Numbered from the stretch's first letter, positions 2,813 to 28,108 are shown. The stretch: 64,000 nucleotides of DNA from Candidatus Latescibacterota bacterium (GCA_965223905.1 CBDCXV010000010.1:352001-416000); one strand, 5' to 3'. Made by a program: numbers and translations. Notes: a model not told the origin generated them from the letters alone.

Positions 2813-3029
2813 GGGGCCAGATCGATTACACTAGCTCGCCCGAGGTGGTATCGAGCGACTTCGTCGGCAATGAGAGAAGCGGCATCGTCGACTCGGGGGC
2901 GACCATTACCCAGGGCAAGCGCTGCGTGCTGTACGTGTGGTACCCGACAACGAGTACGGCTACAGCGCCCAGGTGATCCGCATCCTGCAGCACATATCCG
3001 GTCTCGAACTGCCCTATTTCCCCAAGTAA
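2813..3029 (+). pseudogene. gap: 3' fragment of glyceraldehyde-3-phosphate dehydrogenase
   Basis: Manual translation GQIDYTSSPEVVSSDFVG...CVLYVWY/DNEYGYSAQVIRIL...FPK*; GAPDH WYDNE motif with a 2-nt shift; abuts the element piece. Confidence 0.8.
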
Positions 3030-3052
3030 TCCAATAGCTAGGACAGCTCTCC

Positions 3053-4206: not shown

Positions 4207-4236
4207 GAAGCTCTGGCGAAAGCGGTTAGTGCATGA

Positions 4237-5307
4237 TCAGGTGGTGAGCAGCTTTGCCAGTTCGGGCAAGACATCCTCGGCAAGACCCTCGACAAACCAG
4301 TCCTGTGCATGCATGAAGGCCGGTCTTTCTGGAGCCACAACGACGATTTGGAGGGCGTTGTCACGGGCATAGTCCAGCAGACCGTTATTTGCATCCATCG
4401 ACACGCCTGCAACCAAAGCTACCTGACCTTCCTCGATCCAAGCCCAGCCCTCGTCTGAGCTTTTAAAGTACTTGGGTTCGTTTATATGCACTTTTTGGCT
4501 ACCGGCCCATTCGTGCAGCCCGTCAAAATTGCCCGTAATGATATGCTTCAGTATTCCGTGTTTCTCCAATTGTGCAAGAGCCGCATGGGCTTCGGTGGGG
4601 CTGGCTGTCATAAAGCGGGTATAGAATGTTCCAAGTACTATAGCCGTCTCACGAGGTCGGTGTATTATCCAATCGGCAACAGCACCGGGAAAACGGTAAT
4701 TGTCGATGGGGAATTGCTCCTGCAGTCCACCTTTCCCGTCAAACGCGGGAATACCTGCCGCGGCCGATAACCCAGCGCCCGTGAACGCCACTAGTGGCTT
4801 GCCCTGAATGCGACGCGCAAGTTCCGCCACGTCAACAGCCTCAGCCTGTTCAGGGGCTTGCTCTGGACTTACGGGGTAGTAGCCCCTCCTGCGTTCCGAT
4901 CGTGCCCGCAAGGAGTTCCTAAAAATGGCGGGATCGTCGTGTGAGAGTAACAAATGAGTTGCGACCGTTCCATCGCGCGTTGGTTGGGAGAAAAACTCCA
5001 ACTTAAACTCCTCCCAGACAGCTTCGAGGCGATTTTCCTGGCGCAATGTAGCAGACCACAGACCATCCATGATAGTCTGTCGCAGAGCACTAATCTCGGC
5101 AATCATCTCCTCCTGCTCGTGTTCGCAAGAATGGGCTACCAGGAGGTTTGCCAAGTCAACCTGGCCTTCGCTGGAGATAGCAAACTCGCCATAGAAGCCG
5201 AAAAATCCCGATGGTCCTCCAAAATTGAAATCCATTCCATAGAAGCCCCCAGTTTGTTCTTTGTACCACTCCAACTGCTCTGAGGTTATTTGAGTCAGCC
5301 TGATCAT
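4237..5307 (-). CDS. Atypical Sir2-family protein with an N-terminal extra domain
   Basis: FTGAGLSAAAGIPAF and IITGNFDGLH motifs. Confidence 0.75.
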   Translation of the reverse strand: MIRLTQITSEQLEWYKEQTGGFYGMDFNFGGPSGFFGFYGEFAISSEGQVDLANLLVAHSCEHEQEEMIAEISALRQTIMDGLWSATLRQENRLEAVWEEFKLEFFSQPTRDGTVATHLLLSHDDPAIFRNSLRARSERRRGYYPVSPEQAPEQAEAVDVAELARRIQGKPLVAFTGAGLSAAAGIPAFDGKGGLQEQFPIDNYRFPGAVADWIIHRPRETAIVLGTFYTRFMTASPTEAHAALAQLEKHGILKHIITGNFDGLHEWAGSQKVHINEPKYFKSSDEGWAWIEEGQVALVAGVSMDANNGLLDYARDNALQIVVVAPERPAFMHAQDWFVEGLAEDVLPELAKLLTT

Positions 5308-5451
5308 ACGCCTCCAACCTTCATGCTCGATAGCATCTATCAGTTCTCTAAGAGGGCGGACAGGGTACTTGCCTCGGGACGAGTACCGAGCTTTTCGCTA
5401 GTCGTCTGCCGGGGCCCGCGTGGAATACCGTGGCGTCCAAAGGTGCTCTAA

Positions 5452-6612
5452 TCAGTAGTCCCGCAGGGCGCCGTCGGGTCCAATCACCGGCGACCGGGTA
5501 TAGGGCACAGGCGGATAGTGCGGGAACGCTTCGTCGTTCAGTTCAATTCCAATGCCGGGAGTCTGCGGCACAATCAGGAAACCGCCCTCGCGTCGCAGTG
5601 GCATCTCGACCAGATCCCGTTTCGGGGCATCGTACTCGTCCCGCGGGTACTCCTGGATGGCGACGTTGTGGATGGCGGCGTCGAGTTGCACGCACGCCGC
5701 GGTCAGGACGCAACTCAGAGGGTTGTGCGGGGCGACTCCCACGTAGCTTGCTTCGGCAAGCGCCGCGATCTTTTTGCAATTCGTGACTCCACCGGCGAGC
5801 GACAGGTCCGGCCGGATGTACGAGGCCCCCTTGTGGGCCAGCAACTCGCGGAACTGGTAGGTGGTGTAGAGCCGCTCGCCCATGGCCACGGGCACCGGCA
5901 TATTTGCCGCGATATGGCCCCACGCGTCCATGTTCTCGGGCTCGATGGGATCCTCGAAAAAAAACAGGCCATAGGGCTCAAGGGCCTTGGCCACCTCGAT
6001 GGCCTCCGGCGGCGTGAGGCGGTTGACCACGTCGACCATGAGATCGATCTCGTCACCCACGGCGTCGCGGACCGCCTGTAGGGTAGCCGCGGCGTGCTTA
6101 GCCATGCCGCGGAACGACAGTTGTTCTAGGCTTGTGCCCTCGCCGGACGCAAAGGCCCCGAACGGATAGAGGCGCAGGGCTGTGTAGCCGGCCTCGACCA
6201 TGCTCCGGGCGTCTGCGGCCAACTCCGCCGGGGTATCGCCCTGCAGATGGGAGTACACGCGCACGCGCTCCCGCGTAGGACCGCCTAGCAGCGAATGGAC
6301 GGGTAGCTCGGCTACCTTGCCCTTGATGTCCCATAGCGCGATGTCGATTGCACCGATCGCGGCCATGGTGTCTGCGCCGCCGCGAAACACGCAGCGGCGG
6401 AACATGTGCTGCCAGTTGCGCTCAATGTGGAGGGGATCCTTGCCGATCAGGTACTCGGCGCAGTAATCCACCGCCGCAATGGGCGCAAACGACGTGCCGC
6501 TGGTGCCGCTTGCGGGGTGCAACTCGCCGACCCCCGCTATGCCCTCGTCAGTGTGCACCCGCACGTAGATAAAGCGGCTGGCCCGCAGGGTCTCGATCTT
6601 CGTGACTTTCAT
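5452..6612 (-). CDS. Mandelate racemase/galactonate dehydratase-like enolase superfamily enzyme
   Basis: AIDIALWDIKGK, FFEDP, MGER and VAPHNP motifs. Confidence 0.9.
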   Translation of the reverse strand: MKVTKIETLRASRFIYVRVHTDEGIAGVGELHPASGTSGTSFAPIAAVDYCAEYLIGKDPLHIERNWQHMFRRCVFRGGADTMAAIGAIDIALWDIKGKVAELPVHSLLGGPTRERVRVYSHLQGDTPAELAADARSMVEAGYTALRLYPFGAFASGEGTSLEQLSFRGMAKHAAATLQAVRDAVGDEIDLMVDVVNRLTPPEAIEVAKALEPYGLFFFEDPIEPENMDAWGHIAANMPVPVAMGERLYTTYQFRELLAHKGASYIRPDLSLAGGVTNCKKIAALAEASYVGVAPHNPLSCVLTAACVQLDAAIHNVAIQEYPRDEYDAPKRDLVEMPLRREGGFLIVPQTPGIGIELNDEAFPHYPPVPYTRSPVIGPDGALRDY

Positions 6613-6642
6613 ATCCGTTCTACCTATCTGCCTTCCTAAAAA

Positions 6643-12715: not shown

Positions 12716-12904
12716 ATGAACGTCAGACCTATACCTTCCCGCCTGACCCTACCGCTGCTAACTGCGGCTCTCGCGACCATCTACTATGGGTCGGCGCGAC
12801 TCGGCCTGTTGCTGGCATTTGAGAACACGAACGCGTCTCCGGTGTGGCCGCCCTCGGGCATCGCATTCGCAACCCTTCTGCTCTTCGGATATCGAAAAGT
12901 ATAG
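12716..12904 (+). pseudogene. N-terminal fragment of a MASE1-domain sensor, truncated by an ori end
   Basis: YYGSARLGLLLAF...SPVWPPSGIAFA; the stop comes from GTATAG of the element. Confidence 0.8.
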
Positions 12905-13867
12905 GTAAAATGAGGCACCTTTTTTGGACTCTCGGTCAAAGGCGGACAGCGCACCGCCAGGGTCAGGCAGCTCCCGGAGGATCGTTTGCCAATCCTTCGA
13001 CCGAGCTCGCAGTCCGGTCTGGTTGCCTGTAGGCCCGTATCCGCATCAATTCGGGGCCTGAGGGACCGTTGAGGGCACACCCGTCGCCGTACGCCCGGCG
13101 ACGGCGACGGGTCGAGAAGGCAGGTCAGGCGGCGAACTCGAACAGCGGCTCAGGCGGGGCCCTCGGCGGGGGCATCGCCGGCAGCCCTACCCCCTCCAGA
13201 CAGGTCCGGATCGAAGCCGGATCGGTCCGGGCGGCGATGATTCTCAGGCGACCGCCACAGGCCGCGCATTCGCTGAGGTCGGAGGAAAACACCCGCGCCA
13301 GCAGGGTCGCCCACCGCAGCCGATGGCCGCAGGACGCAGCGCTCGCCGAGCCGTCCGCCGCCGCCGACGGCTCGGCAACCGGCTGGGCCGGCACGATGCG
13401 CTCGCGGGCCCGGGCCCAGGGCGCCAGGACCCCGTGGTAGCGCAGGAGATGAAACCGGGGCGGGGGAACCAGAGCCGCCCGCTTCTCCAGCAGTTCCATC
13501 GGAGAGAGCAGAAGAGGGCGGGTCCCATCCGACCACGGCGTTTTGAGCGCGAAGGAAAGATGGTCGGCATCGAGAATGCGCAGACGCCCCCCCGCCAGGG
13601 CCCGGCCGGGCCACGTAGCGGCACAAGCGTTCGAGCCCGCGCCGGTCAGGGCCTGCGATCCGCGTTGCCGCAGGCAGGGAAAAGCCGCGCGAAGCAAAGC
13701 ACAAGGGCGCCGTACGCACCCCGGTGGCCGGATCTTTCAGGACCCGGCGCAGGCGTTGGCCGGCGCCTGCCCCGGTGGCGGTGAGCCCTCGCACCGAAGC
13801 CGCGGTGAGAGCCGCCAGCACCGGCTCCTCGTCGGCGAGCGGATCGGCTGCGGTGTCGTCGAGCAGG
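12899..13867 (-). mobile_element. IS91/ISCR-type element piece 3 (ori plus 3' part of the transposase)
   Basis: Same ori end; collinear with 6781-7744. Confidence 0.92.
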
Positions 13868-14440
13868 GCACCCACATAGACTATGGGATGCGTCCCCTGG
13901 CTCAATTTAATGTTTTCCCGCGGATTAAATACGAGACTGGTGGTTAGATCGGGCATACTTTCCGTTATGGTCGTGCCCCCTCCTCCTACACCAGGAGGTA
14001 TTTCAAATGTCATTACGTAATCATCGTAATATGGCAAATGCGCCCCATGCAATAGATATTCCACGCCTAGTACTTCTATATCGTCAATATTGTCATGGAG
14101 ATGCCTCGTATTGACAATTACATGAATTCTCTGCCAGTCGCCCTCATGTCTGTTCCACCAGTGATTGTAGGGATAGAAGTAGAGATATTGAATTACAGTG
14201 ATGTCTCCCAACATATCGTGATTGCTGATATCGTATACATACACGTAGGCTGTATTCGGGAAGTTATCGCCCGCGTGAGGTCCGTCGCCAAAGTACGTGC
14301 CATTCCATCCGGGGGTTATGAGGTAATCTGGTCCATCCGGAAAAGGATTCGGGACCTTTTTCCCTTCTGGTTTCACACCGGGATAATCAAAGTAAGGAAC
14401 TACTTTGTAAAAGCCATTTTTAAAACCAGGGGGAGCACCG
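13868..14440 (-). pseudogene. Lower-GC gene fragment with a QY..FYPYN...HEGDW motif (Vps62/NPP1-like), fused in frame to the transposase remnant
   Basis: VIQYLYFYPYNHWWNRHEGDWQRI...HPIVYVGA runs into LLDDTAADP. Confidence 0.55.
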
Positions 14441-14767
14441 ATGTATTCGAAGGGAGAGATCTCGGCGAAGGAGTTCCTGGCGAGAATGTCGAATACGGTT
14501 AACGCTATCGACCTCGTTTTGATCATGATCCGTGAAACGCTTAAACAAAAAGAAGGAGGTGAACGAGAAGGCTGTCAGCGGCTGGATGAGAAAGCCGGTA
14601 CGGGCTTACCAGAAGATCAAGGTGTGTGGGTGTCAGCTCAGCGAAGTCGCAATCGGCCGCGCGACGTCGCTACGGCAGCCCTGGCGAAATGTTCGTTCAG
14701 GATGTCTGGAAGGCTCTCGATAATGGCGAGATCATCGACGCGAAAAGTCGGATCGCGTTGCGGTGGC

Positions 14768-16924
14768 TCAGGAATCGGAACTCCCAATGCTGACCGGCTG
14801 TGTCGTCGGCCGAAGGGCCGTTGGAGTCATCTCCTTGTCCCAGCTGGCCAGCTGGGACATCATCTCGAACAGGTTTATCAGCGCCGCGAGCGATTCCACG
14901 CTCGCAGTCTCTTCCTTCTTCGACAACGGCACGGTGAAATCCCTGCACACCCTGATGAACTTCAGTTTTTTCGCTCTGGCGAACTCGCCATCTTTCTTAG
15001 AGTCTCCCACGAACACCACCTCTTCGGGTTTCAGCCCGTGGTCTTGTAGGATGGCGGTGATCTGTCTCCCTTTGTCAAACCCGGCTTTATAGCCAAACAC
15101 TCCATCTATCTGGTCCTGGAGTCCCGTCCGTGCCGCGTACTCCTCGACCAGCTCGACCCGAGTGCTGCTGCACACAAATGTGTTGAGCCCTTTTTGTTTC
15201 AAGTATGACAGGGTTGGGATGGCATCGCGGAACAGAGGCAGAGCAAAAATCCCATTACTCTTGCGCGCCTCGAACTGCTCCGCCACCTCTGCGTTCCTTT
15301 TGTGCTTTGGGAACATCTCCTCCACTTGGTCCGCAAACGGAAGCCCCGAGGTCTCCAAATACTGACTTCGGACTCTGGCCGCTGTGATGGAGTAATTCCG
15401 CGTGATCAATTCGGTAGCCAACTCGGTGAGGAAGGGCATCGTGTCGGCCAGAGTCCCGTCAAAGTCGAACACGACTGCCTTGACTCCCATGCCTGTAGCT
15501 GGGGTCACGGGTTGATAAGCTGAATCCTGGCGTTGGGACACGCCGTGACCCTTCGTCTGTCTCCACGAAAACAGCATCCGCCAGATAACGATGAGGTTCG
15601 TGTGCACCGCTGTGAGCGCCACTCCCAGCATCGCAAAGCCGGGGTGGAACCACGTCGCCAGCCCACAGCAGAAGAGCAAGAAGAGACGCACATCACGTCC
15701 TCGCCCTGCTGCGATCCATTTTCCCGTGTACTTGTGATTCAAGTTGACGACAGACTTAGCCGATGTATAGCTCACCATCAAATGGCCGACAATCGCCATC
15801 ACTGCGATGGCGAAGATCGCCACTGGATTCCACACGAGCCCGATGACCTCCCGGCCTCCGAGCTCCGACAGGGCATAGAAGGTGAGCCCGGCAAACATCA
15901 GACTATCTGCGTACCGATCGAGGACAGCGTCAAAGTAGTCCCCCATTTTGGATTGCAGATGCTTGAGCCGCGCAACTTCCCCATCACACCCGTCCAGAAT
16001 ACTGGAAAGCTGCATCACCACGGCGCCAGCGATCGCCTCGCCAGCGAAGAAGCACGCACTGCTCAAGGCGGCGACGACAAAGCTCACCACCGAAACTTGA
16101 TTAGGCGTAATAGCCGGGCAGAGCTTTAGAAGCAGAGGTGTGAGCAATCGGCTCGAAAGGGGCCGGTTTATGTAACGGGAAACCCAACCGTCAGCTGCTT
16201 TGGTCGACAGGTTCGACAACAGCTCGTGCTCGGCCTTGAAGAGCGCGGCCTCGTCGTCGACGTCCATCCAGAACCGCCCCTGTATGTCGAATGCCGCTAC
16301 CTTACCGCGATCAGCCAGGAGCTGGACAGCCCCCGACAGAGAGGTGTCGTCGCAGGCACGAATACAGGTCTTGATCGCCTTGAAAAGAGCGGGGGAGCAC
16401 AGGAAAATGCCTGCGTCGTACGCGTTGTACCGAGAAATTTGTTTGCCGATTTTGAGGATTCTTCCACCGTTGGCGAGTACGTTCGTCACATCATCCGGAT
16501 CCGCTCGGCCATTCGTGGCCAGGTCGTAATCTACTGCCAAGCGTACGTCGGCATTTCCCAGCGGCTCGCAGAGGAGTCTTTTGAGGATCTCCTCATCGAA
16601 GACGTGGTCTGCCATGAGCAAGACGAAATCGCCTTCCAGCAGATGGGCAGCCTTTAAAACCGACAGACCGTTTCCCTCTTGCCAGTCTTCGTTGATGACC
16701 GGCGTGATCCGCACGTTCATCTTCTGGCTCAGCTCGTCCAGAAAGGACCGAACCATCTCTCCTTGGTAACCCGTTACCACGTAGAGATCGGTCAGTCCAC
16801 TTCTGACTGCCGTACGAATTGTCCGTTCGACGAGCGGCATGCCCAGCAGGGGCACGAGCGGCTTTGAGGGCCCTCTGCGGGATAACCGGCTCCCCCTGCC
16901 GGCGGCGATAATGAGGCATTTCAT
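14768..16924 (-). CDS. Nucleotidyltransferase + CDP-alcohol phosphatidyltransferase (IPCT/DIPPS-like) + HAD phosphatase fusion, 718 aa
   Basis: IIAAGRGSRL..KPL; DGCDGEVAR...GDYFDAVLDRYAD; FDFDGTLADT...FVGDSKKD. Confidence 0.88.
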   Translation of the reverse strand: MKCLIIAAGRGSRLSRRGPSKPLVPLLGMPLVERTIRTAVRSGLTDLYVVTGYQGEMVRSFLDELSQKMNVRITPVINEDWQEGNGLSVLKAAHLLEGDFVLLMADHVFDEEILKRLLCEPLGNADVRLAVDYDLATNGRADPDDVTNVLANGGRILKIGKQISRYNAYDAGIFLCSPALFKAIKTCIRACDDTSLSGAVQLLADRGKVAAFDIQGRFWMDVDDEAALFKAEHELLSNLSTKAADGWVSRYINRPLSSRLLTPLLLKLCPAITPNQVSVVSFVVAALSSACFFAGEAIAGAVVMQLSSILDGCDGEVARLKHLQSKMGDYFDAVLDRYADSLMFAGLTFYALSELGGREVIGLVWNPVAIFAIAVMAIVGHLMVSYTSAKSVVNLNHKYTGKWIAAGRGRDVRLFLLFCCGLATWFHPGFAMLGVALTAVHTNLIVIWRMLFSWRQTKGHGVSQRQDSAYQPVTPATGMGVKAVVFDFDGTLADTMPFLTELATELITRNYSITAARVRSQYLETSGLPFADQVEEMFPKHKRNAEVAEQFEARKSNGIFALPLFRDAIPTLSYLKQKGLNTFVCSSTRVELVEEYAARTGLQDQIDGVFGYKAGFDKGRQITAILQDHGLKPEEVVFVGDSKKDGEFARAKKLKFIRVCRDFTVPLSKKEETASVESLAALINLFEMMSQLASWDKEMTPTALRPTTQPVSIGSSDS

Positions 16925-17041
16925 GTGTGGGACGAACTCCTCGCGTGCGGTCATTTTTCCTTTGACAGTTGAGGACAGAAGGGGCAATCTTGGGGGCGGA
17001 GACATGAAAGGGCGCAAAAACCCCCTTCACTAGCCTCCACC

Positions 17042-17577: not shown

Positions 17578-17685
17578 ACTATCGAATATTATCTAACGTC
17601 AATTCGGATGGGTCTCCCCCTTCTTATCATGACTATCGAATATTATCTAACTTATCATGCGTCAATTCGGATGGGTCTCCCCCTT
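17578..17685. repeat. Scrambled short direct repeat (A-B-c-A-c-B)
   Basis: A=ACTATCGAATATTATCTAAC, B=GTCAATTCGGATGGGTCTCCCCC, c=TTATCATG, each twice. Confidence 0.85.
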
Positions 17686-17972
17686 GGTGCGACCGCAAGC
17701 TCAGCCGCCTAGCTGTTCGGGTTCGTCGCGTCCGTGAGCACGGAGCCTCTCGAAGCTGATGTCGCTCAGCAACTTTCAGAGGCTGACGAAATCTTCTGAG
17801 TGGCAGCTTGCAGGAACGATTCGACCTGAAGTTCAACGTCTATGATCCTTAAGGAATGGTCGTCGTTGGTGTTCACATCTTCCTCTCGTCCGTACGCCAA
17901 ATCACCCCGACCAGGAAGTACGGCAGGATCACAGCCTGAAACACTGGGCCGTCACGCCATCCCTGGATCCGT

Positions 17973-19040
17973 ATGAATAAGCCCAATGCAGTTGTCGTGG
18001 GTTACGGCTTCGCCGGCCGCTGCTTTCACGCCTACCTGGTTGGTATCACAGCAGATCTCAACCTGTACGGCGTCGTCTCCGGCCGTCCCGAGGCTCGCGA
18101 AGAAGTCCGCTCTCAGCTTGGCGTGAAAGCGTTCGAGCGTTTTGAAGAGGCTCTCGCCGATTCAAATGTCGACCTGGTTGTCCTCGCCACGCCCAACGAT
18201 ATCCACGCTCCGCAGGCCATAGCCGCCATGGAGGCTGGCAAGCACGTGGTCACGGACAAACCGATGTGTCTGAATCTACGAGAGGCAGACGATATGATCG
18301 CCGCCAGCCGCAGGACCGGACGTCTGCTCAGCATCTTTCAGAACCGGCGCTGGGATGGGGACTACCTCACTGTCCGGAAAGTGCTCGAGGAAGGCTTGAT
18401 CGGTGACCCGTACTACATCGAGATGGCATGGCAGCAGTACGGCCCTCCCCGGACCTGGCGCGGAGAAAGGCGGCGCGGCGGCGGCAAATTCGTGGATCTG
18501 GGAGCGCACATGATCGATCAAGCCCTCCAACTGATTCGCGCGTCCCTCGATCGGGTCTACGCCCGCTTTTTCTCGGAGGGGTGGCCGACCGAGGTGGAGG
18601 ACCACGCCCACTGTATTCTGAGTTTCGACAGCGGCGTCGATGTGCACGTTGTGACTTCGTCACTCACCACACACTCAAAGCCGAGATGGTACATATTGGG
18701 GACAAAGGGCGGACTCGTGAAGACGGGTCTGGATCCCCAGGAGAAGGCCATGGTCGCTGGAGATATCGACGCGGCCCGTGAGGATCCGGCCCACTATCCA
18801 CGGCTGTGGACGGCAGTCGCCGGGCAGCCGGCTGAGACCGTGATCGAACCCGTACCCGGACGGTGGCGGTCCTATTACGAGAATATCGCTGCAGCCATCC
18901 GAGGTACAGAGGAGCTGGCAGTCACCCCGGAAAGTGTCCGTGCCGTCATGGCTGTGTTGGAGGCGGCGCGCACATCAGTTGAGCGCGGTGAAGCAGTTTC
19001 GTTGGACGAAACAGCAGGCAGTAGCAGATCTGGCGCATAG
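17973..19040 (+). CDS. Gfo/Idh/MocA oxidoreductase (YdgJ/IolW-like)
   Basis: VVGYGFAG, VTDKPM, QNRRWDGD and DLGAHMID motifs. Confidence 0.9.
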   Translation: MNKPNAVVVGYGFAGRCFHAYLVGITADLNLYGVVSGRPEAREEVRSQLGVKAFERFEEALADSNVDLVVLATPNDIHAPQAIAAMEAGKHVVTDKPMCLNLREADDMIAASRRTGRLLSIFQNRRWDGDYLTVRKVLEEGLIGDPYYIEMAWQQYGPPRTWRGERRRGGGKFVDLGAHMIDQALQLIRASLDRVYARFFSEGWPTEVEDHAHCILSFDSGVDVHVVTSSLTTHSKPRWYILGTKGGLVKTGLDPQEKAMVAGDIDAAREDPAHYPRLWTAVAGQPAETVIEPVPGRWRSYYENIAAAIRGTEELAVTPESVRAVMAVLEAARTSVERGEAVSLDETAGSSRSGA

Positions 19041-19288
19041 CGCCACATTCCCGCATCACCATCAAGTATAGGTAAAATGAGGCACCTTTTTTGGACTCTC
19101 GGTCAAGGCGGACAGCGCACCGCCAGGGTCAGGCAGCTCCCGGAGGATCGTTTGCCAGTCCTTCGACCGAGCTCGCAGTACAGTTTGGTTGCCTGTCGGC
19201 CCGTATCCGGATCAATTCGGGGCCTGAGGGACCGTTGAGGGCACACCCCGCCGTACGCCCGGCGACGGCCACGGGTCGAGAAGGCAGG

Positions 19289-20044
19289 TCAGGCGGCGAA
19301 CTCGAACAGCGGCTCAGGCGGGGCCCTCGGCGGGGGCATCGCCGGCAGCCCTACCCCCTCCAGACAGGTCCGGATCGAAGCCGGATCGGTCCGGGCGGCG
19401 AGGATTCTCAGGCGACCGCCACAGGCCGCACATTCGCTGAGGTCGGAGGAAAACACCCGCGCCAGCAGGGTCGCCCACCGCAGCCGATGGCCGCAGGACG
19501 CAGGGCTCGCCGAGCCGTCCGCCGCCGACGGCTCGGCAACCGGCTTGGCCGGCACGATGCGCTCGCGGGCCCGGGGCCGGGGCGCCAGGACCCCGTGGTA
19601 GCGCAGGAGATGAAACCGGGGCGGGGGAACCAGAGCCGCCCGCTTCTCCAGCGTCTCGATGCGGATGTACGCCATCCCCTCCCCCTTCAGATGCTCGATG
19701 GCCGTCTCCACCAGTTTCAGCCCGATCCCCTTTCTCTGATGCCGCGGTAGCACAGCGTAGTTTGGAATCCCGCCTATTTTGGCTTCTTCGTCTACGCGGG
19801 TAGTGATGTAGCCCACCACCTCGCCGTCGACCTCAGCGACGAACATTCCGTCAGCATGCGCATCCACGTCCGCGTCGATATGCCGCTTCTTGCGCCAGCG
19901 CCAGCCGTGACCGGCGATCGGGCCGAACTCCTTCTCGATGTTCTGATCGATGGAGACACCGTCGAAGCAGATGGCGGTGATTTCTTTGACGATGTCGAGA
20001 TCGGCGTCGGTGCACTTCCTGTCGGTGCACTTCCTTATGTTCAT
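19289..20044 (-). CDS. GNAT acetyltransferase fused in frame to the transposase C-terminus (copy 1)
   Basis: VLPRHQRKGIG GNAT motif, then IETLE|KRAALVPPPRFHLLRYHG. Confidence 0.85.
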   Translation of the reverse strand: MNIRKCTDRKCTDADLDIVKEITAICFDGVSIDQNIEKEFGPIAGHGWRWRKKRHIDADVDAHADGMFVAEVDGEVVGYITTRVDEEAKIGGIPNYAVLPRHQRKGIGLKLVETAIEHLKGEGMAYIRIETLEKRAALVPPPRFHLLRYHGVLAPRPRARERIVPAKPVAEPSAADGSASPASCGHRLRWATLLARVFSSDLSECAACGGRLRILAARTDPASIRTCLEGVGLPAMPPPRAPPEPLFEFAA

Positions 20045-20062
20045 GTCGTTTTCCGCTCGCGC

Positions 20063-20417
20063 CTACTGCCTCTGCACCAGTTCGATCAGCAACCCGTCCG
20101 GATCCCTCGCGCATACGACGCCGCCGTTTTCGTACATGAACGGGTCCGACACGAATTCCACACCTCGTCCCTGCAGTTGCGCCACCGTATCTTTCAGATC
20201 GGCCACGAAGAAAGTGATCCAGCGAACGCCGGCAGAGAAATCCCCGGAGCCCGAGGCCGGCGGCGACTCGATCTGCATCAGCTTGAGCAGGGTGTCACCC
20301 GCTTGGAGCCGCACCTGGCGGAAACCGCTGGGCGCCAGCCCCACCTGTGTGGCCAGTTCCGCGGAGATCTCCAGCTCCACGGCGATCTCGAATCCAAGCT
20401 GATCGCGATAAAACTCC
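20063..20417 (-). pseudogene. VOC/glyoxalase gene, 5'-truncated copy
   Basis: Same as 23211-23565 but lacks the first ~21 codons. Confidence 0.85.
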
Positions 20418-20616
20418 GCGTCCTGAGAAGAAGGGACGATCGACAACGGCCCTGAGCTTGGATACCTTTCGCCGGCGCTACCTGCGCGTGCCCTCGCGTA
20501 GTACGTTCCACGGTCGGGCGGTCGGAGTGACCATCGCGCAAGCGATCGCCGCCCGCTGGTACCGTCTCTGGAGATTCCTTGCCACGCTCAAACCCGTCGA
20601 CATGATTACCGCATGA
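20418..20616 (+). pseudogene. Possible C-terminal remnant of an IS1380-like transposase
   Basis: LDTFRRRYLRVPSRSTFHGR resembles IS1380 C-termini; similarity judged by eye only. Confidence 0.35.
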
Positions 20617-20924
20617 CGCTTGGCCCGGGTCGGTCCATGTGATCGGCTCGCAACGCAGCGTCATCGAGGGCGCGTACAATTTCAAGAAAGGTCAGTAGGG
20701 TCAGGAGAGGACGGGTTTGCCTAAGAAGGAGACTATAGCAGACACTCTGCCTATGTGCTTATGCGAAATCGATCTTCGTAGCGGCGAGCTTCGCTTCATG
20801 GCACGTTGAATGAATAACAAGGGCTCAGGGGACAACCAACCCCCCGCAGAGTCCACCTTAACCCCGCTACCAGCTGTCCAAAGGATGGGGACCACCTCGT
20901 AGCAAACAGACAAGGGAGGCAATT

Positions 20925-21746
20925 GTGCAGATCAAATTCACTTTAAAGTTCACGGGTGCGGTATGGAGTGCAATTTTACTCCTACCAGTTGCGTGCACCA
21001 ACTCGAACGCTCCTGGCTCTCCGGTTTCCGACGGCAATGACGCTGATGAAAACCTCTCTCGGGTGTCCATTGAGAACCATGAAGTTGTGTTCAGCCTCGA
21101 CCGGGAGGATCTCACCATCGGGTCTGCGGTTTTTAGTGTGATTTGTTTTCAGAAAGCTCAAAATCGCGCGAATGAACAGACATTTACAGATTGCGATATC
21201 TTCAGAGTTAACGGTGTAGATCAACCAAGATTGTCTCACCCTATGCAACCAATCGACTTGAATACATTTCTGCTTACCGCTAAAGACATTGAATTCTCCT
21301 TGGACGGTGAAGCCTATCTCTGCTTGACAGTCAAACCCTGGTTTAATGAGATACCAAATGAGTCTGATTGGCATTACTATGCTGAGGGCAACGACCGCTA
21401 TTCCATGCTTTCATATTGTAGCGTGGATGAGATTCCAGATTGGGGCCGGGACAATGTCCGGGTCACGCAAAATCGGGTTCAATCCCTGGAGGAGTTCAAG
21501 CGAAGACTCTCGGCGCCAATTGAAATCTACACATCTGATAGAGCGCTACCGCCAAGGTTTGGGTCAACAGAATTCAAAGGAGGAGATTTGCGCAATGATG
21601 AGCTCAGGCAATGCGGGCACGCGATCCCCATGCCAGCGGGTAGAATTCCAGAGAATCCATCATCAGAGCCAATCAGAATTCCGGTTGGTATCTACGCGGG
21701 ATGGCTTTTTGATGACAATACAACCTACCAGTGCCTGGAGGAGTAG
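20925..21746 (+). CDS. Hypothetical lipoprotein (lower GC)
   Basis: 273-aa ORF, GGAGG RBS, lipobox-like LLLPVA-C. Confidence 0.65.
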   Translation: MQIKFTLKFTGAVWSAILLLPVACTNSNAPGSPVSDGNDADENLSRVSIENHEVVFSLDREDLTIGSAVFSVICFQKAQNRANEQTFTDCDIFRVNGVDQPRLSHPMQPIDLNTFLLTAKDIEFSLDGEAYLCLTVKPWFNEIPNESDWHYYAEGNDRYSMLSYCSVDEIPDWGRDNVRVTQNRVQSLEEFKRRLSAPIEIYTSDRALPPRFGSTEFKGGDLRNDELRQCGHAIPMPAGRIPENPSSEPIRIPVGIYAGWLFDDNTTYQCLEE

Positions 21747-22213
21747 GGGACCGGGAGTGCTTGATCGACGGGTGAGCGCGTACTCAAATGGCTGCGAGAC
21801 TTCTCAGAATATACGTAAGTTCCACTTTCGCTACCACCCAGGTCCCGCTGCGGCGACTTCGCCGCCTTGGCCTCCGGAAACCTGGCTGCGCCAGGTTCCC
21901 AAACCGTGAGACGTTATGCGGAATTTTCAGGATAGAGACGAGGTGCATTGGAGTTGAGCCTAATTGACAAACTGCCAAGCCCCGAATGGGTCAGGAAGGA
22001 ATATGGGATTCTCTGGGATGGACAGTACTGCGACATGACCGGCAGTATCGCCCATGTTGTCAGGATCGAGCCAAAGAATGTTGGGGGATCCTATGTGGTT
22101 CGAATCTCCGATCCCAAGCGGATCTGCAGCGGCGGCTGTCGCTAGTTCACCGGTTCCAGACTCACCTGACCACTAGAGGTGTGCGGACCGTTCTGCCGCT
22201 GAAGGCCCTTAAA

Positions 22214-22800
22214 GTATAGGTAAAATGAGGCACCTTTTTTGGACTCTCGGTCAAGGCGGACAGCGCACCGCCAGGGTCAGGCAGCTCCCGGAGGATCGTT
22301 TGCCAGTCCTTCGACCGAGCTCGCAGTACAGTTTGGTTGCCTGTCGGCCCGTATCCGGATCAATTCGGGGCCTGAGGGACCGTTGAGGGCACACCCCGCC
22401 GTACGCCCGGCGACGGCCACGGGTCGAGAAGGCAGGTCAGGCGGCGAACTCGAACAGCGGCTCAGGCGGGGCCCTCGGCGGGGGCATCGCCGGCAGCCCT
22501 ACCCCCTCCAGACAGGTCCGGATCGAAGCCGGATCGGTCCGGGCGGCGAGGATTCTCAGGCGACCGCCACAGGCCGCACATTCGCTGAGGTCGGAGGAAA
22601 ACACCCGCGCCAGCAGGGTCGCCCACCGCAGCCGATGGCCGCAGGACGCAGGGCTCGCCGAGCCGTCCGCCGCCGACGGCTCGGCAACCGGCTTGGCCGG
22701 CACGATGCGCTCGCGGGCCCGGGGCCGGGGCGCCAGGACCCCGTGGTAGCGCAGGAGATGAAACCGGGGCGGGGGAACCAGAGCCGCCCGCTTCTCCAGC
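22214..22800 (-). mobile_element. IS91/ISCR-type element piece 5 (ori plus transposase 3' end)
   Basis: Same ori end; collinear with 6781-7369. Confidence 0.92.
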
Positions 22801-23192
22801 GTCTCGATGCGGATGTACGCCATCCCCTCCCCCTTCAGATGCTCGATGGCCGTCTCCACCAGTTTCAGCCCGATCCCCTTTCTCTGATGCCGCGGTAGCA
22901 CAGCGTAGTTTGGAATCCCGCCTATTTTGGCTTCTTCGTCTACGCGGGTAGTGATGTAGCCCACCACCTCGCCGTCGACCTCAGCGACGAACATTCCGTC
23001 AGCATGCGCATCCACGTCCGCGTCGATATGCCGCTTCTTGCGCCAGCGCCAGCCGTGACCGGCGATCGGGCCGAACTCCTTCTCGATGTTCTGATCGATG
23101 GAGACACCGTCGAAGCAGATGGCGGTGATTTCTTTGACGATGTCGAGATCGGCGTCGGTGCACTTCCTGTCGGTGCACTTCCTTATGTTCAT
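22437..23192 (-). CDS. GNAT::transposase C-terminus fusion (copy 2)
   Basis: Identical translation to 19289-20044. Confidence 0.85.
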   Translation of the reverse strand: MNIRKCTDRKCTDADLDIVKEITAICFDGVSIDQNIEKEFGPIAGHGWRWRKKRHIDADVDAHADGMFVAEVDGEVVGYITTRVDEEAKIGGIPNYAVLPRHQRKGIGLKLVETAIEHLKGEGMAYIRIETLEKRAALVPPPRFHLLRYHGVLAPRPRARERIVPAKPVAEPSAADGSASPASCGHRLRWATLLARVFSSDLSECAACGGRLRILAARTDPASIRTCLEGVGLPAMPPPRAPPEPLFEFAA

Positions 23193-23210
23193 GTCGTTTT
23201 CCGCTCGCGC

Positions 23211-23630
23211 CTACTGCCTCTGCACCAGTTCGATCAGCAACCCGTCCGGATCCCTCGCGCATACGACGCCGCCGTTTTCGTACATGAACGGGTCCGACAC
23301 GAATTCCACACCTCGTCCCTGCAGTTGCGCCACCGTATCTTTCAGATCGGCCACGAAGAAAGTGATCCAGCGAACGCCGGCAGAGAAATCCCCGGAGCCC
23401 GAGGCCGGCGGCGACTCGATCTGCATCAGCTTGAGCAGGGTGTCACCCGCTTGGAGCCGCACCTGGCGGAAACCGCTGGGCGCCAGCCCCACCTGTGTGG
23501 CCAGTTCCGCGGAGATCTCCAGCTCCACGGCGATCTCGAATCCAAGCTGATCGCGATAAAACTCCAGCGATTTGTCGAAGTCGCTGCAGACGATGGCGAT
23601 GTCGACGACGGTGTGAGTTTGTTTGATCAT
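23211..23630 (-). CDS. VOC/glyoxalase family protein
   Basis: SLEFYRDQLGF and RDPDGLLIELV motifs. Confidence 0.9.
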   Translation of the reverse strand: MIKQTHTVVDIAIVCSDFDKSLEFYRDQLGFEIAVELEISAELATQVGLAPSGFRQVRLQAGDTLLKLMQIESPPASGSGDFSAGVRWITFFVADLKDTVAQLQGRGVEFVSDPFMYENGGVVCARDPDGLLIELVQRQ

Positions 23631-23685
23631 GTTCGCCTACCTCCTCTTTGGTCGAACGAGCCCCGAGGCGCTGGCGCAGCCCGGC

Positions 23686-24675
23686 TCATCGCATCCGGGA
23701 GTCGGACATCCACATGTCAGGGTTCCGGCCGATGGCGTCTTTGACAGGTTGTGTCAGGCGCTCTAACTCGGCCATCGTAGCTGCGTCGAGCTCCAACGAA
23801 AGCGTCGGCAGGTTGGTCTCCAGTTCGTCCGCATCCCGGGCGCCGACCAGGAAGGATGTCACTCCCCTCTGCTGTCTCACCCAGGCGAGTGCCACGCTCG
23901 CCATCGGGGCGCCAACCTGGCGGCTCAACTCGCGAATGCCGGAGATGGCGCTGAAAACAGCTGCCTCGCATCCCGGCTCGCCGTGTCCGGCCTGCGCGCG
24001 GGAGCTCGCATACCATCGCGTCCGGGCCAGCCCCTCCGGAACCTCGTCAGCCGTCGCATACCTTCCCGTCAGCAGCCCCTGCGCCAGCGGACTGTAGCAT
24101 ATCAACCCGATCGCGCTCTCGCGGCAGAGCGGCAGGATTTCAAACTCGATTGCCCGCCACAGAAGGCTGAAGGGCAGCTGGTTCGTCTCCGGCCGGCCAA
24201 CCTCGATCAGATCGGACAGGTCGCCGACGGCGAAGTTCGCGACACCGAGCGCGCGCACCTTGCCCTCCCTCACCAGATCCTCGAGCGCGCGCCAGGACGT
24301 GTCGATCGGGATGTCGTGATTTGGCCAGTGGATCTGGTACAGGTCGATGTAGTCCGTATTCAGATTTTTGAGGCTCTCCTCGCAGGCGGACGCGATCCCT
24401 TCCGCAGTCAGGTGGTTCGGGGCTACCTTGGTTGCGATCACCGCCTGCTGGCGCCTCCCTTCCAGACCACGTGCGAGAACACGCTCGGACTCACCCTTCT
24501 CGTATGCCTCTGCCGTGTCGAAGAGGTTGATGCCCGCGTCCAGTGCGGCGCGCACCGTCGCAATCGATTGATCGTCGTCCTGATCGCCCCAGATCGAGCC
24601 GCCCGCGAAGGGCCAGCAACCCAGACCCATCACCGAGACTTCGATACCCAAATTGCCCAGCCTCCGGTATTCCAC
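23686..24675 (-). CDS. Aldo/keto reductase
   Basis: GLGCW, FDTAEAY, DLYQIHWP and YSPLAQGLLTG motifs. Confidence 0.93.
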   Translation of the reverse strand: MEYRRLGNLGIEVSVMGLGCWPFAGGSIWGDQDDDQSIATVRAALDAGINLFDTAEAYEKGESERVLARGLEGRRQQAVIATKVAPNHLTAEGIASACEESLKNLNTDYIDLYQIHWPNHDIPIDTSWRALEDLVREGKVRALGVANFAVGDLSDLIEVGRPETNQLPFSLLWRAIEFEILPLCRESAIGLICYSPLAQGLLTGRYATADEVPEGLARTRWYASSRAQAGHGEPGCEAAVFSAISGIRELSRQVGAPMASVALAWVRQQRGVTSFLVGARDADELETNLPTLSLELDAATMAELERLTQPVKDAIGRNPDMWMSDSRMR

Positions 24676-24692
24676 TTCACTCCTTCATGTGA

Positions 24693-25265
24693 TCAAAGCT
24701 CGTTGAGGCCTGTCAGGCTGTCAGTCCTGAGTGCCACAGCCTGTGAAAACGCCCCGACCTCAGCAGAAGATCTAAGACGCACAAATCGTATGTGGTTCCA
24801 AGACGATTCAGTAGTATATGCCAGCATACTGCGACGCGTGCGCCGGTGCTGCGTGACAATCCACCATAGCAGCGAATCCTCCTTGCGCCAGACCATGAGC
24901 TGGGGCCAGAAACGCTCGTAGTTTGTCCCCCAAAGCGGCTCCTGCGACCGCCAGCGACGCCACGAATCGAATCAGCATTCGCCAGATGAGTGGAACCATG
25001 GGCAAATCCAGCCAGCGATCGTCTCCAGGCGTGGCCAGAAAATGCGTTGTGAAAATTGCATGTAGGAGCCGGCCACAACCCATCCATCACCACGGGTTGC
25101 TTCGCCTATTCTCCGTTCGAGTTCCTCGGGGTTTGTGTCGCTCAGAGCAACCCAGCCAGGTTGCCAATTGAGCGCGTCCAACTCCACCAAGGGGACGCCG
25201 AGGGCGGCCGACAGCTGCGCTCCCAAGGTGCTTTTTCCAGCGCAGCTATTCCCAACTATTACGGG
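24693..25265 (-). pseudogene. Adenylate kinase-like P-loop protein (FlaR/topology-modulation type), frameshifted and probably 5'-truncated
   Basis: GNSCAGKST...ELDALNWQPGW, then WLDLP, then SLLWWIVTQH in different frames. Confidence 0.7.
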
Positions 25266-25378
25266 GAGCGGTAAATAGGTGACATAGATGGCACCATTTC
25301 CCCTTCGAGAGTGTTGTAAACTTTCAATTACTCCCCGTAGTATGTGAATCCTGTGGCCGGTCCGTAAGCCAGTGTGCG

Positions 25379-25819
25379 TCACTCGAACTGCCGTTCGCTC
25401 TGGCGGACCGCCTTGCCTTTGCCTCGAATGATATCCCGGCGCTTCCAGGTCTGGACGGCGCGACAGATCCAGTCGCTCTCACCGAGGAGTCGCCGTAGCT
25501 GGTCTTTCGTGAACCACTCATGCCGATCGCGGGCCAGTTGGTCAGGAGGCAATGTTTCATCGGAGTAGCCGTACAGTCGGCAGACACCGTCTTTCGTTTC
25601 AACATCCTCGATGTAGGACATCCACGGGATGTCCAGTCCGAGCTGTGTCTTTGTATAGAGCCTTATCGCCGCATCGATATTCCCGAGCCGTGACTCCTCG
25701 CTGGCCAAGCCCCGCGACCGGGCAAGCGCCTCCTGCGAAACTGTGCCATCGTCGGCTGCGGATACAGTTGGGCAGTCAGCTGACCTGCTCTGCCAGTGTC
25801 GAGGCACCGCAGAAGTCAT
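25379..25819 (-). CDS. Hypothetical protein or fragment
   Basis: 146-aa ORF with no recognised motif. Confidence 0.35.
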   Translation of the reverse strand: MTSAVPRHWQSRSADCPTVSAADDGTVSQEALARSRGLASEESRLGNIDAAIRLYTKTQLGLDIPWMSYIEDVETKDGVCRLYGYSDETLPPDQLARDRHEWFTKDQLRRLLGESDWICRAVQTWKRRDIIRGKGKAVRQSERQFE

Positions 25820-25956
25820 TGCTGATTGCCACTGATTGTCACGCTTCCCGTGAACCCACTTGCCACCAATCTATCTGCGACAGCCTGAGCTGACGAATCG
25901 GTCAGCGCGTGCGCGAGCTCTCGGTCCCCAAACCGAATGCTACGCGACGGTCGTTC

Positions 25957-27924
25957 TTAGTACATCATGCTCAGTCCGTTACCCAGCATCCCGGTAAAGT
26001 AGTCGACGATCAGCCAGAATCCCCCGGCCACGAACTGACCCAGAATCAACCCGTAGAACACGGGGATGAGCGACTGATAGGCTTTGAGGCCGCCGTACTT
26101 CAAGAGGACCGTCTTGATCAACCAGGCCAGAAAGACCGGAAACCAGGCGGTGTCCATCACCCGGTCCATGCTGACCACGAATCCCAGAGGATGCAGCGGC
26201 CACCACAGGAATCGGCGCTGCATGAGCAGCAGACCCGTCATCACCCCGGCCCCGATCAGCCGAATGAGCCAACCCAGCCCGTTCGGTCCCGCGTTCTCCT
26301 CGACCCGGCTCGCCACGTACGCCCAGGTGAAGTCGGGGAGGTAACTGACGGAACGCGCTACGTTGATGCCTCCCTCGCGATAGGCTACCGACAGCGACAT
26401 CCAGAAGGTGCTGACAGCGGAGACCAAAATGGCAATTGCCAGCGCCAGCAGCAGCCAGCGCTTGCGAGAGGCGATCTCGCCGGTCAGCTTCAACCCGGTG
26501 GCAGTGTGCGCCATCATCGTGCTCGCCAGGGACTCCGTCCATATCACCGTGGGGCCCAGCGCCGCCATCCCCGCAGGCCCTATGTAGCGCACCCCGATCC
26601 CCGAGACCACGAAGTCCAAGGGGATGTTGCGGGGAAACACCATGGGCAGTCCCGCCTCGGCGATGATGCGCGTCAGGCTGACGAAGGTTACCAGCGCCCC
26701 GAACAGAAACAGCAGACCCGCCCACAGGGGCAAACCCGCCCGCCACAGCCACACGCTCATTCCGATCACCCCGAGAATCACCCCCCATACGGCGGTGCGG
26801 TAGGACATGATTTCATCGGAATCGTCCACGGACGCGTCGCCTCTGAACGCCTTGCGGAACACCTCCCGCAGGTGCCCCCGGGCCATCCACAGCCCGAAGA
26901 GGACGAGCGCTAACATCGCGCCGATGCTCTGATGAGCCAGCAAGCCCCTCACACCGCCGCCGCCGCCATAATTGGACAGCGCTTCTCCTATGCCGAGCCC
27001 CGTCATGTGCAGCACACCCTCCTCCAGGCGCCTCAGGGCATAGAACACCCACATCCCGAACATGACGTCCGCCTTGAGGAAATACGCGAACCCCAGAATC
27101 ATCAGATTCAGCGAAAAGCCTACATTCGCGAATCGCGGCAGCAGTGTGAGTGAGCCGAAGTGGGTCGGAACCACGGGAACGATGGGGAAGTAGTGGTGCA
27201 GGGCGTTGAGACTCTCGCGACCGAACGACAGCGACAAACCCACCCACATCAGACCGCTCTTGAAGAAAGGCGCCACCAGCGAACCGCCCGGTGGCGGCTG
27301 CACCATGGCCAGCGGCACTTTGGTGATGGGATAGATGAGATGTTCGTGCTCCACCCACTGGCGGCGAAGGATAACCATCGCGCAGATGCTCGCCATCCAC
27401 AACGCCACCATGAACAGCAACCACCACAACAGCGGCGACAACCACATGCCCCAGGGAATGGACTCGCCCTCCGGTATGCCCTCGAAAAACCACCGGATCC
27501 CCAGCTCATCCTGAGGGACCATCCACTTCGCCACGTAGGGATGAACACGCTCCGCCCAGTTGTTCTCCGGAGTCGCCAGGTAGGATACCCCGGCCGCGGA
27601 CCCCAACAGCATCATGCAGAAGCCGTTGCGCTCGCCACCCGAGAACGCCGTGGCTACGACCATCATGATGTAGATGGTCAGCAGCTCTCCCTTGCCCAGG
27701 ACCAGCCTCCGGTGAATGAGCCCCAACACCACCTGGACGACACCCACCCACAGAAAGAACAGGAAGAATGCGGCGGGACCATTCAACCCGCTCATGCGGG
27801 TGCCCATGATGACGAACGCACCGTAGGGCTCTCCCACGCCGATCGCCAGACTGAGTGCGGCGCCGATGACGAGCGAGCGCAGCGTCACCCCCGACGCCGA
27901 CCGGTCCTCTAGCCCCCCTGACAA
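25957..27924 (-). CDS. DUF6785/DUF6784-like polytopic membrane protein (putative peptide transporter)
   Basis: 655 aa, many TM helices; LRRQWVEHEHLIYP, WWPLHPLG and LKYGG motifs. Confidence 0.8.
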   Translation of the reverse strand: MSGGLEDRSASGVTLRSLVIGAALSLAIGVGEPYGAFVIMGTRMSGLNGPAAFFLFFLWVGVVQVVLGLIHRRLVLGKGELLTIYIMMVVATAFSGGERNGFCMMLLGSAAGVSYLATPENNWAERVHPYVAKWMVPQDELGIRWFFEGIPEGESIPWGMWLSPLLWWLLFMVALWMASICAMVILRRQWVEHEHLIYPITKVPLAMVQPPPGGSLVAPFFKSGLMWVGLSLSFGRESLNALHHYFPIVPVVPTHFGSLTLLPRFANVGFSLNLMILGFAYFLKADVMFGMWVFYALRRLEEGVLHMTGLGIGEALSNYGGGGGVRGLLAHQSIGAMLALVLFGLWMARGHLREVFRKAFRGDASVDDSDEIMSYRTAVWGVILGVIGMSVWLWRAGLPLWAGLLFLFGALVTFVSLTRIIAEAGLPMVFPRNIPLDFVVSGIGVRYIGPAGMAALGPTVIWTESLASTMMAHTATGLKLTGEIASRKRWLLLALAIAILVSAVSTFWMSLSVAYREGGINVARSVSYLPDFTWAYVASRVEENAGPNGLGWLIRLIGAGVMTGLLLMQRRFLWWPLHPLGFVVSMDRVMDTAWFPVFLAWLIKTVLLKYGGLKAYQSLIPVFYGLILGQFVAGGFWLIVDYFTGMLGNGLSMMY

Positions 27925-28108
27925 ACCCAGTAGTCCCTCTCTCGAGTGTCGCCAGGAAACCTCGACGACCTACTCAATTCCAATGGTCACAAGATGAAAC
28001 GGTAGCGGAGGAATGGAAAGAAAAGATGGATATGGAGATGCGGATGGGGATGGAGAAATGGAGATGGGCACCAGTGGAGACGTGGGAGGAGTACTACTCG
28101 ATCTCCAA

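Follow-up and report, generated by a model that had tools for sequence, protein, structure and literature searches.

An exact ori-led repeat in an array of ISCR-like remnants of a Candidatus Latescibacterota bacterium: one-ended transposition or older module duplication?

When a transposase remnant and the genes fused to it occur twice without a single mismatch, and one boundary of the repeat coincides to the base with the ori of an IS91-family element, has a transposase copied the unit into a new site, or have other processes made and preserved the repeat? This question is raised by a stretch of 64,000 nucleotides from a Candidatus Latescibacterota bacterium (GCA_965223905.1, CBDCXV010000010.1:352001-416000; hereafter the window, with positions counted from its first letter), in which a block composed of a remnant of an ISCR-like (IS91-family) element and parts of a GNAT and a VOC/glyoxalase-family gene is present in two copies. 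The initial annotation, made from the window alone, read the repeat as the product of a one-ended transposition that had inserted a transposase-dead composite, mobilised in trans, into an IS1380 transposase gene. From comparison with the remainder of the genome, with related genomes and with unitigs of sequencing runs, we lean towards a different history, namely an older duplication at the level of modules, joined illegitimately where a hairpin of the VOC gene has its foot, whose copies were kept identical by conversion within an array built by rolling-circle transposition.

The repeated block and the element at its head

The two copies of the block, at 19064-20417 and 22212-23565 on the plus strand, are 1354 bp long and align with 0 mismatches (ungapped comparison at an offset of 3148, with which a repeat search and a genome-wide blastn search are concordant). 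They are direct repeats 3.1 kb apart, and the identity is confined to the homologous stretch. Copy 1 forms the head of module 4 (M4, 19064-22211), while copy 2 forms the head of module 5 (M5, 22212-28106), where ungapped comparison and Pfam matches show that it runs on into intact VOC and aldo/keto reductase (AKR) genes. The 1352-bp repeat described initially is thereby confirmed, and the block is two bases longer on its left because the AAG ahead of TATAGG is common to both copies. As the nearest other copy of its first ~600 bp in the genome is only 96.2% identical (blastn), the exact block is exceptional against the background similarity of the repeat family, and chance cannot explain it.

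At base level the edges of the block are as first described: the left edge is the terminus common to the whole ori family, AAG/TATAGG, and the right edge falls within the VOC gene, which is whole in copy 2 only. The CAAG reported at the join is found at 19063-19066, its AAG (19064-19066) being the invariant trinucleotide ahead of TATAGG (base-level comparison and survey of ori matches). By analogy with IS91, for which the available part of PMC13181058 describes a tetranucleotide beside oriIS as essential and states that no duplication is made, the nick is presumed to lie at 19066/19067. The claimed lack of a target duplication also stands, since base-level comparison of the flanks found no direct repeat. 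The 3' end of the block reads ...ACTCC, that is, TCC rather than an AAG-type terminator. All four junction 30-mers occur a single time in the assembly.

The full element from which the head derives measures 1767 bp and extends from AAG/TATAGGTAAAATGAGG... (ori) to ...GTGTGAAGATTCCCTCACATT (ter), with a 5-bp hairpin at ter; read directly from the sequences, the ori and ter ends are mutually non-complementary, giving an element with two unlike ends, a subterminal hairpin and no terminal inverted repeats. Of 21 ori-proximal matches in the genome, 15 open with AAG followed by (T/C)ATAGG, and in these the preceding base is A in seven, G in five, C in two and T in one. Ahead of AAG in 51 ori-led stretches of other genomes stands G (24), A (15), T (7) or C (5), and as AAG was part of the search pattern for these stretches, only the preceding base is informative there. 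The sole uninterrupted transposase gene of the genome is that of the copy on contig C11 (480 codons), whose product scores 102 bits with Y2_Tnp (cut-off 20.9) and 74 bits with Zn_Tnp_IS91 (cut-off 26.3) in Pfam. Among NCBIfam profiles it matches ISCR clade Ia best, with 364 bits against a cut-off of 925 (E 1e-108; residues 9-454 aligned to model positions 24-485 of 509), and the IS91 equivalog gives 108.3 bits against 125. Given these sub-cut-off scores, the element is, judged by its domain content, a distant ISCR-like member of the IS91 family outside the named NCBIfam groups. The assignment to the IS91 family made at the outset thus agrees with both Pfam domains and with the best profile, and the composite was rightly called transposase-dead and fused to host genes, as the block copies retain a C-terminal transposase remnant only and the intact gene lies elsewhere, on C11.

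The block is part of an array. Six ori ends of the same orientation (1818/9, 6779, 12896/7, 19064, 22212 and 28107, together spanning 1818-28698 on the plus strand; genome blastn and alignment to the reference element) each head a transposase remnant of differing length, followed by differing cargo. Searched against the genome, the 1767-bp reference yields 51 high-scoring segment pairs, 22 of which begin no more than 7 nt from the ori terminus; five clusters contain 18 ori ends, with orientation agreeing in 13 of 13 adjacent pairs. Among species-representative genomes the ori motif was found in 40 loci, all in metagenome-assembled genomes of Candidatus Latescibacterota, and the 10 loci with multiple matches again show co-orientation (11 of 11 adjacent pairs). 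In the 51 ori-led stretches from these 40 loci (8-kb pieces), no pair of ori-plus-cargo duplicates at 97% identity or above reaches past the transposase remnant.

Orthologous copies of the element show internal post-insertional deletions, of 358 bp in L043 versus L046 and of element positions ~90-1204 in L039 versus L040. In both of these pairs of Latescibacterota records one genome keeps only the first 47-89 nt of the element and the other far more, the ori tip outlasting deletions that strip the rest. Premature rolling-circle termination was considered as the origin of the nested ori-anchored remnants and rejected, as the truncation points lack AAG and orthologues differ by internal deletions. 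Truncation at element position 638-640 is recurrent: three ori-anchored remnants (C10:1,468,257; 1,602,245; 1,628,653) end there, each with different downstream DNA.

Head, flanks and breakpoint of the block

The first 589 bp of the block (19064-19652, minus strand) are the ISCR-like remnant, which in alignment to the 1767-bp reference copy corresponds to element positions 1-581 and comprises the ori end, a non-coding stretch of ~225 nt and the 3'-most ~118 codons of the Y2 transposase gene (Y2_Tnp 153-180 of 183, ISCR_clade_Ia 375-484 of 509). A chimeric open reading frame (ORF) of 251 codons (19289-20044, minus strand; twin in copy 2 at 22437-23192) carries GNAT residues 1 to ~130 in frame into the transposase C-terminus (Pfam, NCBIfam), with the GNAT domain at residues 51-133. 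It is followed by the 3' part of the VOC gene, without the first 22 codons (20063-20417, minus strand; Glyoxalase 17-121 of 121 in Pfam, base-level comparison). In copy 2 the VOC gene is intact (23211-23630, minus strand, 139 codons; Pfam Glyoxalase 5-121 of 121, NCBIfam) and the AKR gene (23686-24675, minus strand; Pfam) lies beyond it as part of the M5 tail. Neither the GNAT nor the VOC gene reached a resistance-specific model in NCBIfam.

How the head arose is indicated by G013, a genome of another genus of the same family, in which GNAT, VOC and AKR genes of 89-94% identity are free of any remnant and contiguous across 23565/23566; M5 retains this native gene order. The junction between the remnant and the 3'-truncated GNAT gene was placed by setting the reference element, the window and the native G013 locus side by side. 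Because it falls within a 6-nt microhomology, TCCAGC (19647-19652, again at 22795-22800), when set against the IS-free locus, the alignment shows the head to be the product of a microhomology deletion between the element and the adjacent native locus, by which element position 581 was fused to GNAT codon ~130. A mosaic test of the block's remnant against those of the mobile unit U_a (see below) and of G002, a complete genome of the same genus, gave no interpretable switch point.

To the left of copy 1, the block abuts the 3' flank of a GFO/IDH/MocA oxidoreductase gene (17973-19040, plus strand; Pfam), which constitutes the end of module 3; the stop codon at 19040 is followed by 23 bp of flank, up to 19063. 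In G002 the GFO gene and its flank are 98% identical and an ori is joined at the same base, and this GFO-flank|AAGTATAGG junction continues into the equivalent of the window's 12897-17010 (97.6%), not into the block. The latter segment, which we call unit U_a (12897-17010, plus strand), consists of an ori end, a 971-bp transposase remnant, two cargo ORFs and a terminal AAAG (blastn identity to G002 of 97.6% across 4.1 kb, with the two ends compared at base level). It closes with ...GAAAG in both genomes, both of its flanks differ between them, and, as with the block, no target-site duplication is seen around it in either. The family thus moves dead remnants together with cargo, as U_a shows in two species; U_a bears the signature of a one-ended-type unit finishing at AAG, a parallel to IS801. 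The G002 block occupies a non-syntenic context. The remnant of the G002 unit is ~95% identical to that of the block and therefore offers ample homology for recombination at the GFO-flank|ori joint. Both G001 and G002 are without the block's cargo and without segment B, which in three sequencing runs lies on a unitig of 1853 nt (20388-22240).

Regarding the sequence around the GFO stop codon, we note that it lies inside a GGCGC-ATA-GCGCC hairpin (19031-19051), followed by ACATT. Among the hairpins that were folded only this one stands out (z -2.5; 2 of 200 shuffles fold as well), those at ori, at ter and at the VOC site being unremarkable. It resembles the ter end of the element (hairpin plus CACATT) and lies 15 nt ahead of the module-border CAAG; a meaningful role of such a ter-like motif was rejected and the likeness is taken as chance, the same motif being absent before other ori ends. 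Upstream of the GFO gene there is a 63-bp tandem duplication (17589-17685), and homology to G002 starts in its second copy, at 17655.

To the right of copy 1 lies a 5'-truncated IS1380-like relic (20418-20823, plus strand; tblastn, nucleotide match to G012), made up of the last 61-65 codons of a transposase gene (20419-20616) and the 3' end of the element. The last 61 residues, encoded by 20419-20601, share 74% identity with residues 322-382 of a C10 paralogue (tblastn, E 2e-23), and the homology begins at the junction. The paralogue scores 132 bits with DDE_Tnp_1_4 (cut-off 34.7) and 173.3 bits with NF033539 (cut-off 180); the 65-codon relic itself has no Pfam match and is tentatively assigned through its 74% identity to the paralogue's C-terminus. 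Its 5' part was found neither in the window nor in the genome. A longer copy in G012 is 90% identical to the relic, compared with 72-75% for this genome's own IS1380-like copies, and this intact relative reads ...CGTCCGGG (...CGGG) before the breakpoint, which is not an AAG-type target. Beyond the relic, low-GC DNA (0.47-0.52) holds a 273-codon ORF (20925-21746, plus strand) without a family match in Pfam or NCBIfam and with an N-terminus that by eye is lipoprotein-like. Then follows a 5' gene fragment (21846-22211, plus strand; blastn, tblastx) cut at the ori end of copy 2: these final 366 bp match the beginning of a 375-codon G020 frame at 81-84% identity, the homology ends at 22211, where G020 goes on with GAGGAG..., and the remainder of the gene is absent from this genome by blastn and tblastx. 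For relic and fragment alike the best match comes from another genus (90% in G012, 84% in G020), and M4 as a whole resembles an ori-to-AAG unit whose tail is foreign. The module may either have been placed whole by the transposase or have been made in place, by a tandem-type duplication of 20418-23565 and subsequent remnant recombination.

Since the left side is the 3' flank of the GFO gene and the IS1380 homology starts at the junction, the two flanks are not halves of one gene. The stop-free frame that was said to be restored by removal of the block does exist, and the right part of the rejoined peptide matches IS1380 transposases in searches; the left half finds no counterpart there and is the flank of the GFO gene, so that the restored frame is half real and half due to chance. 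The flanks thus have different origins, one in the GFO locus, also seen in G002, and the other in the C-terminal part of an IS1380-like transposase gene, an outcome that the initial annotation had itself named as refuting its reading.

The right edge of the block coincides with a predicted hairpin of a 9-bp stem and 4-nt loop (23565-23586; by folding), which opens on the base with which the repeat closes. At C10:1,604,638, in reverse orientation, window 2383-6613 (99.93% identical) is joined straight to 23566-25259 (100%). In G002 the same two partners are joined otherwise, 6285-6406 to 23548 with a TG overlap, at a neighbouring palindrome 18 nt from the block's breakpoint. The second locus as a whole (C10:1,608,868-1,602,634) corresponds to window 2383-6613 plus 23566-25654, inverted; in it the start codon of an enolase-superfamily gene (6610-6612) is joined to the first 22 codons of the VOC gene, and the stop of this VOC stub overlaps the start (ATGA). 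The window contains an extra 81 bp (25260-25340) that are absent from the second locus and from G002.

A single 1.23-Mb inversion between the window and C10:1.604 Mb, which would have made 23565|20418 and 6613|23566 at once, was refuted by synteny with G001, where the flanking segments C10:330-338 kb and 430-438 kb have kept their collinearity, at 778-784 kb and 716-723 kb of the minus strand. In G002 the four synteny probes are scattered, and GC skew is uninformative because the putative inversion would be symmetric about the skew switch. The GC skew of C10 is negative except at ~1.02-1.61 Mb, and the switch on the right falls at the second ISCR-like array, as though an older inversion had ended there; G001 probes on either side of it also differ in orientation.

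Three further features of the array and its surroundings were recorded. An insertion sequence of 1.57 kb (251-1820; copies 96.6-99.7% identical on C10, C11 and C2) adjoins the ori end at 1818, with which the array begins, and carries a 475-codon ORF (273-1700, minus strand) that scores 182.5 bits with the ISKra4 family (cut-off 205). A 1.58-kb element at 47281-48859 has 13 more copies of 99.8-100% identity on C1, C9, C10 and C11, one of them beside the 1.6-Mb array, and is probably an active insertion sequence. In the M5 tail, a DUF6785/DUF6784 gene (25957-27924) has paralogues of 84-86% identity at C10:2.09 Mb and 2.17 Mb.

Module duplication weighed against transposition

In the history that we favour, the head was made once, by the 6-nt microhomology deletion that the alignment shows between an element and the adjoining native GNAT-VOC-AKR locus. 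M5 keeps the native continuation, and M4 carries a second copy of the head that ends at the foot of the VOC hairpin. The joint to foreign low-GC DNA, with the gene fragment and the IS1380 relic, is read there from the sequence; that it is illegitimate and was made without the transposase is our proposal. Identity would start at ori as the module borders of the array are AAG/TATAGG nick sites, and not by way of a 1354-bp insertion. Gene conversion would keep the heads identical, as strain contigs suggest, making the event older than it appears. The transposase appears to move whole ori-to-AAG units such as U_a and may have placed M4 whole; the 20417|20418 junction it probably did not make.

The case for conversion comes from Logan unitigs (k=31) of the runs X1-X4, compared with 17700-22250, of which X3 and X4 stem from two studies other than that of X2, the possible source. 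In X3 and X4 the unique part of the block is on one unitig ending at 20417, which bears a 15-nt deletion at 20006 in full depth (35.3/35.3 and 17.6/17.6), and X4 shows two substitutions in the block as well; X2 has neither the deletion nor substitutions. Strain-specific changes on a single unitig suggest gene conversion of the two heads: if both copies are present in X3 and X4, as the unitigs suggest, changes shared by them imply conversion, and the 100% identity cannot date the event. A recent origin cannot be read from this identity. Other remnants within the genome differ from that of the block by 29-46 positions per 600 columns, compared with 88 between the U_a remnant and its G002 orthologue. 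In view of this similarity within the genome, of the internal deletions between orthologues and of the truncation points that lack AAG, deletions and conversion are demonstrably, on the sequences compared, the main processes here.

Several points weigh against this history. An ori-exact boundary is also predicted by copying that a transposase initiates, and at least two steps are needed, the duplication or placement of the head and the illegitimate junction. The 20417|20418 joint shows no clear microhomology (0-1 nt), unlike the joint between remnant and GNAT. An earlier ori-led unit behind the GFO gene would have to be assumed for this lineage from its presence in G002. The 6613|23566 joint uses the complementary side of the very breakpoint in the VOC gene, 23565/23566, at which the block ends, a reuse that the model would explain only by a fragile hairpin. 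In our reading the VOC site would be fragile because of stalls or nicks at the hairpin foot; its fold is no better than that of shuffled sequences (z -0.8, -1.2), and this coincidence is the main opening for a transposase-based reading. The inference of conversion, finally, relies on Logan unitigs, which can drop variants, and the overlaps across the junctions, of 29-30 letters and thus below the 31-letter bridging rule, are consistent with the structure without proving it, as k=31 unitigs give such lengths at repeat borders.

That the transposase made the repeat by one-ended transposition in some form, aberrant ones counted, is a tentative possibility which we would not put on a par with module duplication. 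Its better-surviving variant, still unlikely in our view, is an aberrant rolling-circle event that starts with a nick at ori in an M5-like module and ends at a pre-existing nick or stall at the hairpin foot at 23565, after which the free 3' end would be end-joined by the host to a resected neighbouring IS1380 copy with deletion of the intervening DNA; the same fragile site would also be the source of the 6613|23566 joint. Its attraction is that one event covers both edges, ori-exact on the left and non-canonical on the right, together with the truncated relic and the reuse of 23565/23566, and the joint of the same partners in G002, at another palindrome 18 nt away and with TG microhomology, fits with it. 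However, nicking at the hairpin would have to be assumed, its fold scores no better than shuffled sequences, the hairpin lies 3' of the break, which is the reverse of the geometry at a ter end, and such an event is indistinguishable from polymerase stalling in recombinational repair.

One-ended transposition in its simple form, which we hold to be improbable, would have the transposase, acting in trans, nick ori at 22212, copy 1354 nt and insert them after CAAG at 19063-19066, so that the relic would be the original right neighbour of this CAAG. The block indeed opens at the ori terminus, preceded by CAAG, a canonical IS91 tetranucleotide according to the available part of PMC13181058, its flanks are free of a target duplication, and the genome contains one uninterrupted transposase gene. 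Moreover, any fragment of IS801 that contains ori can be mobilised in trans according to PMC6354349, and U_a provides an example of a dead remnant moving with its cargo in this family. However, the block ends in TCC, whereas one-ended events of IS801 are described there as ending at GAAC or CAAG, and U_a ends in AAAG. The truncation point of the relic is the junction itself, and the left flank has no relation to the relic, so a simple insertion would have had to hit an older illegitimate junction exactly, and the same GFO|ori joint carries a different unit in G002. An empty site was found neither in the genome nor in relatives or reads: words of 10, 12 or 14 bases per flank, as well as words across a circle junction of the block, do not occur in the genome, the 19063>20418 joint is not among the 13 joints listed for X1-X4, where absence from contigs proves nothing, and metagenome scans with a 30-mer of the relic and with one spanning 23565/6 returned 0 loci. 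With its TCC end, its flanks of different origin, the G002 joint and no empty site, the insertion of a 1.35-kb unit into an IS1380 gene, as proposed in the initial annotation, is unsupported.

A broader possibility, which we also regard as quite doubtful, is that the ISCR-like ori ends of Latescibacterota form a cassette system. The transposase would cut AAG^TATAGG, excise whole modules between a nick and the AAG that follows, and favour existing nick sites when re-inserting them, giving same-orientation arrays with swappable cargo, in which hairpin sites within the cargo, such as 23565/6 in the VOC gene, would be secondary cleavage sites that make new heads and tails. The block and the 6613|23566 joint would then be two products of one cut site. 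Finally, an assembly artefact, in which a single real copy was collapsed and placed twice by the assembler, is suggested by the 100% identity of the copies and the repeat-rich genome but is hardly credible, as the 1853-nt unitig in three runs contains 30 letters of the block's end and 29 of ori, the GFO unitig likewise reaches 29 letters into ori, the unitig of the unique block halts exactly at 20417, where the graph must branch, and the four junction 30-mers are each found once, with unitig overlaps 1-2 letters under the bridging rule.

Relation to known systems

The case shows the limits of ori-exact, duplication-free repeats as proof of transposition in arrays of the IS91/ISCR type: an ori-exact start and 100% identity mimic a fresh one-ended jump, and the relatives point instead to module borders, microhomology deletions and conversion. 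It also documents large chromosomal arrays of ISCR-like remnants with ordinary metabolic genes in an uncultured phylum, including in U_a one clear case of a dead remnant with cargo at different sites in two species, and these genomes constitute a natural data set for rolling-circle gene capture and shuffling outside antibiotic resistance.

The closest parallel is IS801/CRR1 of Pseudomonas syringae plasmids, for which the available part of PMC6354349 describes many ori fragments, mobilisation of dead fragments in trans and one-ended carriage of neighbouring genes, as well as termination at short tetramers and frequent deletions and recombination between copies; U_a behaves in this way. In contrast to IS801/CRR1, the array described here belongs to another phylum, is chromosomal and is long and of one orientation. 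The flanking motif is NAAG rather than the GAAC/CAAG of IS801, and the 1354-bp block is without such a terminal tetramer. With IS91, as described in PMC13181058, the element shares a Y2 HUH transposase that carries a zinc-binding domain at its N-terminus, ori and ter ends that differ from each other, a hairpin near ter, the lack of a target duplication and a required short sequence on the ori side. It differs in that its score with the IS91 equivalog (108 bits) stays below the cut-off of 125, and in its length of 1767 bp.

ISCR elements are represented here by the best-matching profile, clade Ia; the score of 364 bits, far under the cut-off of 925, marks a distant relative, and the cargo is ordinary and metabolic. 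[quoted passage not shown] Copies flanked by varied captured genes, as seen in our array, are also a feature of ISCR elements in the available part of PMC13393415. Finally, the locus resembles a segmental duplication maintained by gene conversion in its direct repeats, in an identity limited to the homologous stretch and in strain changes that lie on a single unitig; unlike in a plain segmental duplication, one border here is a transposase nick site, so that the transposase may have played a part.

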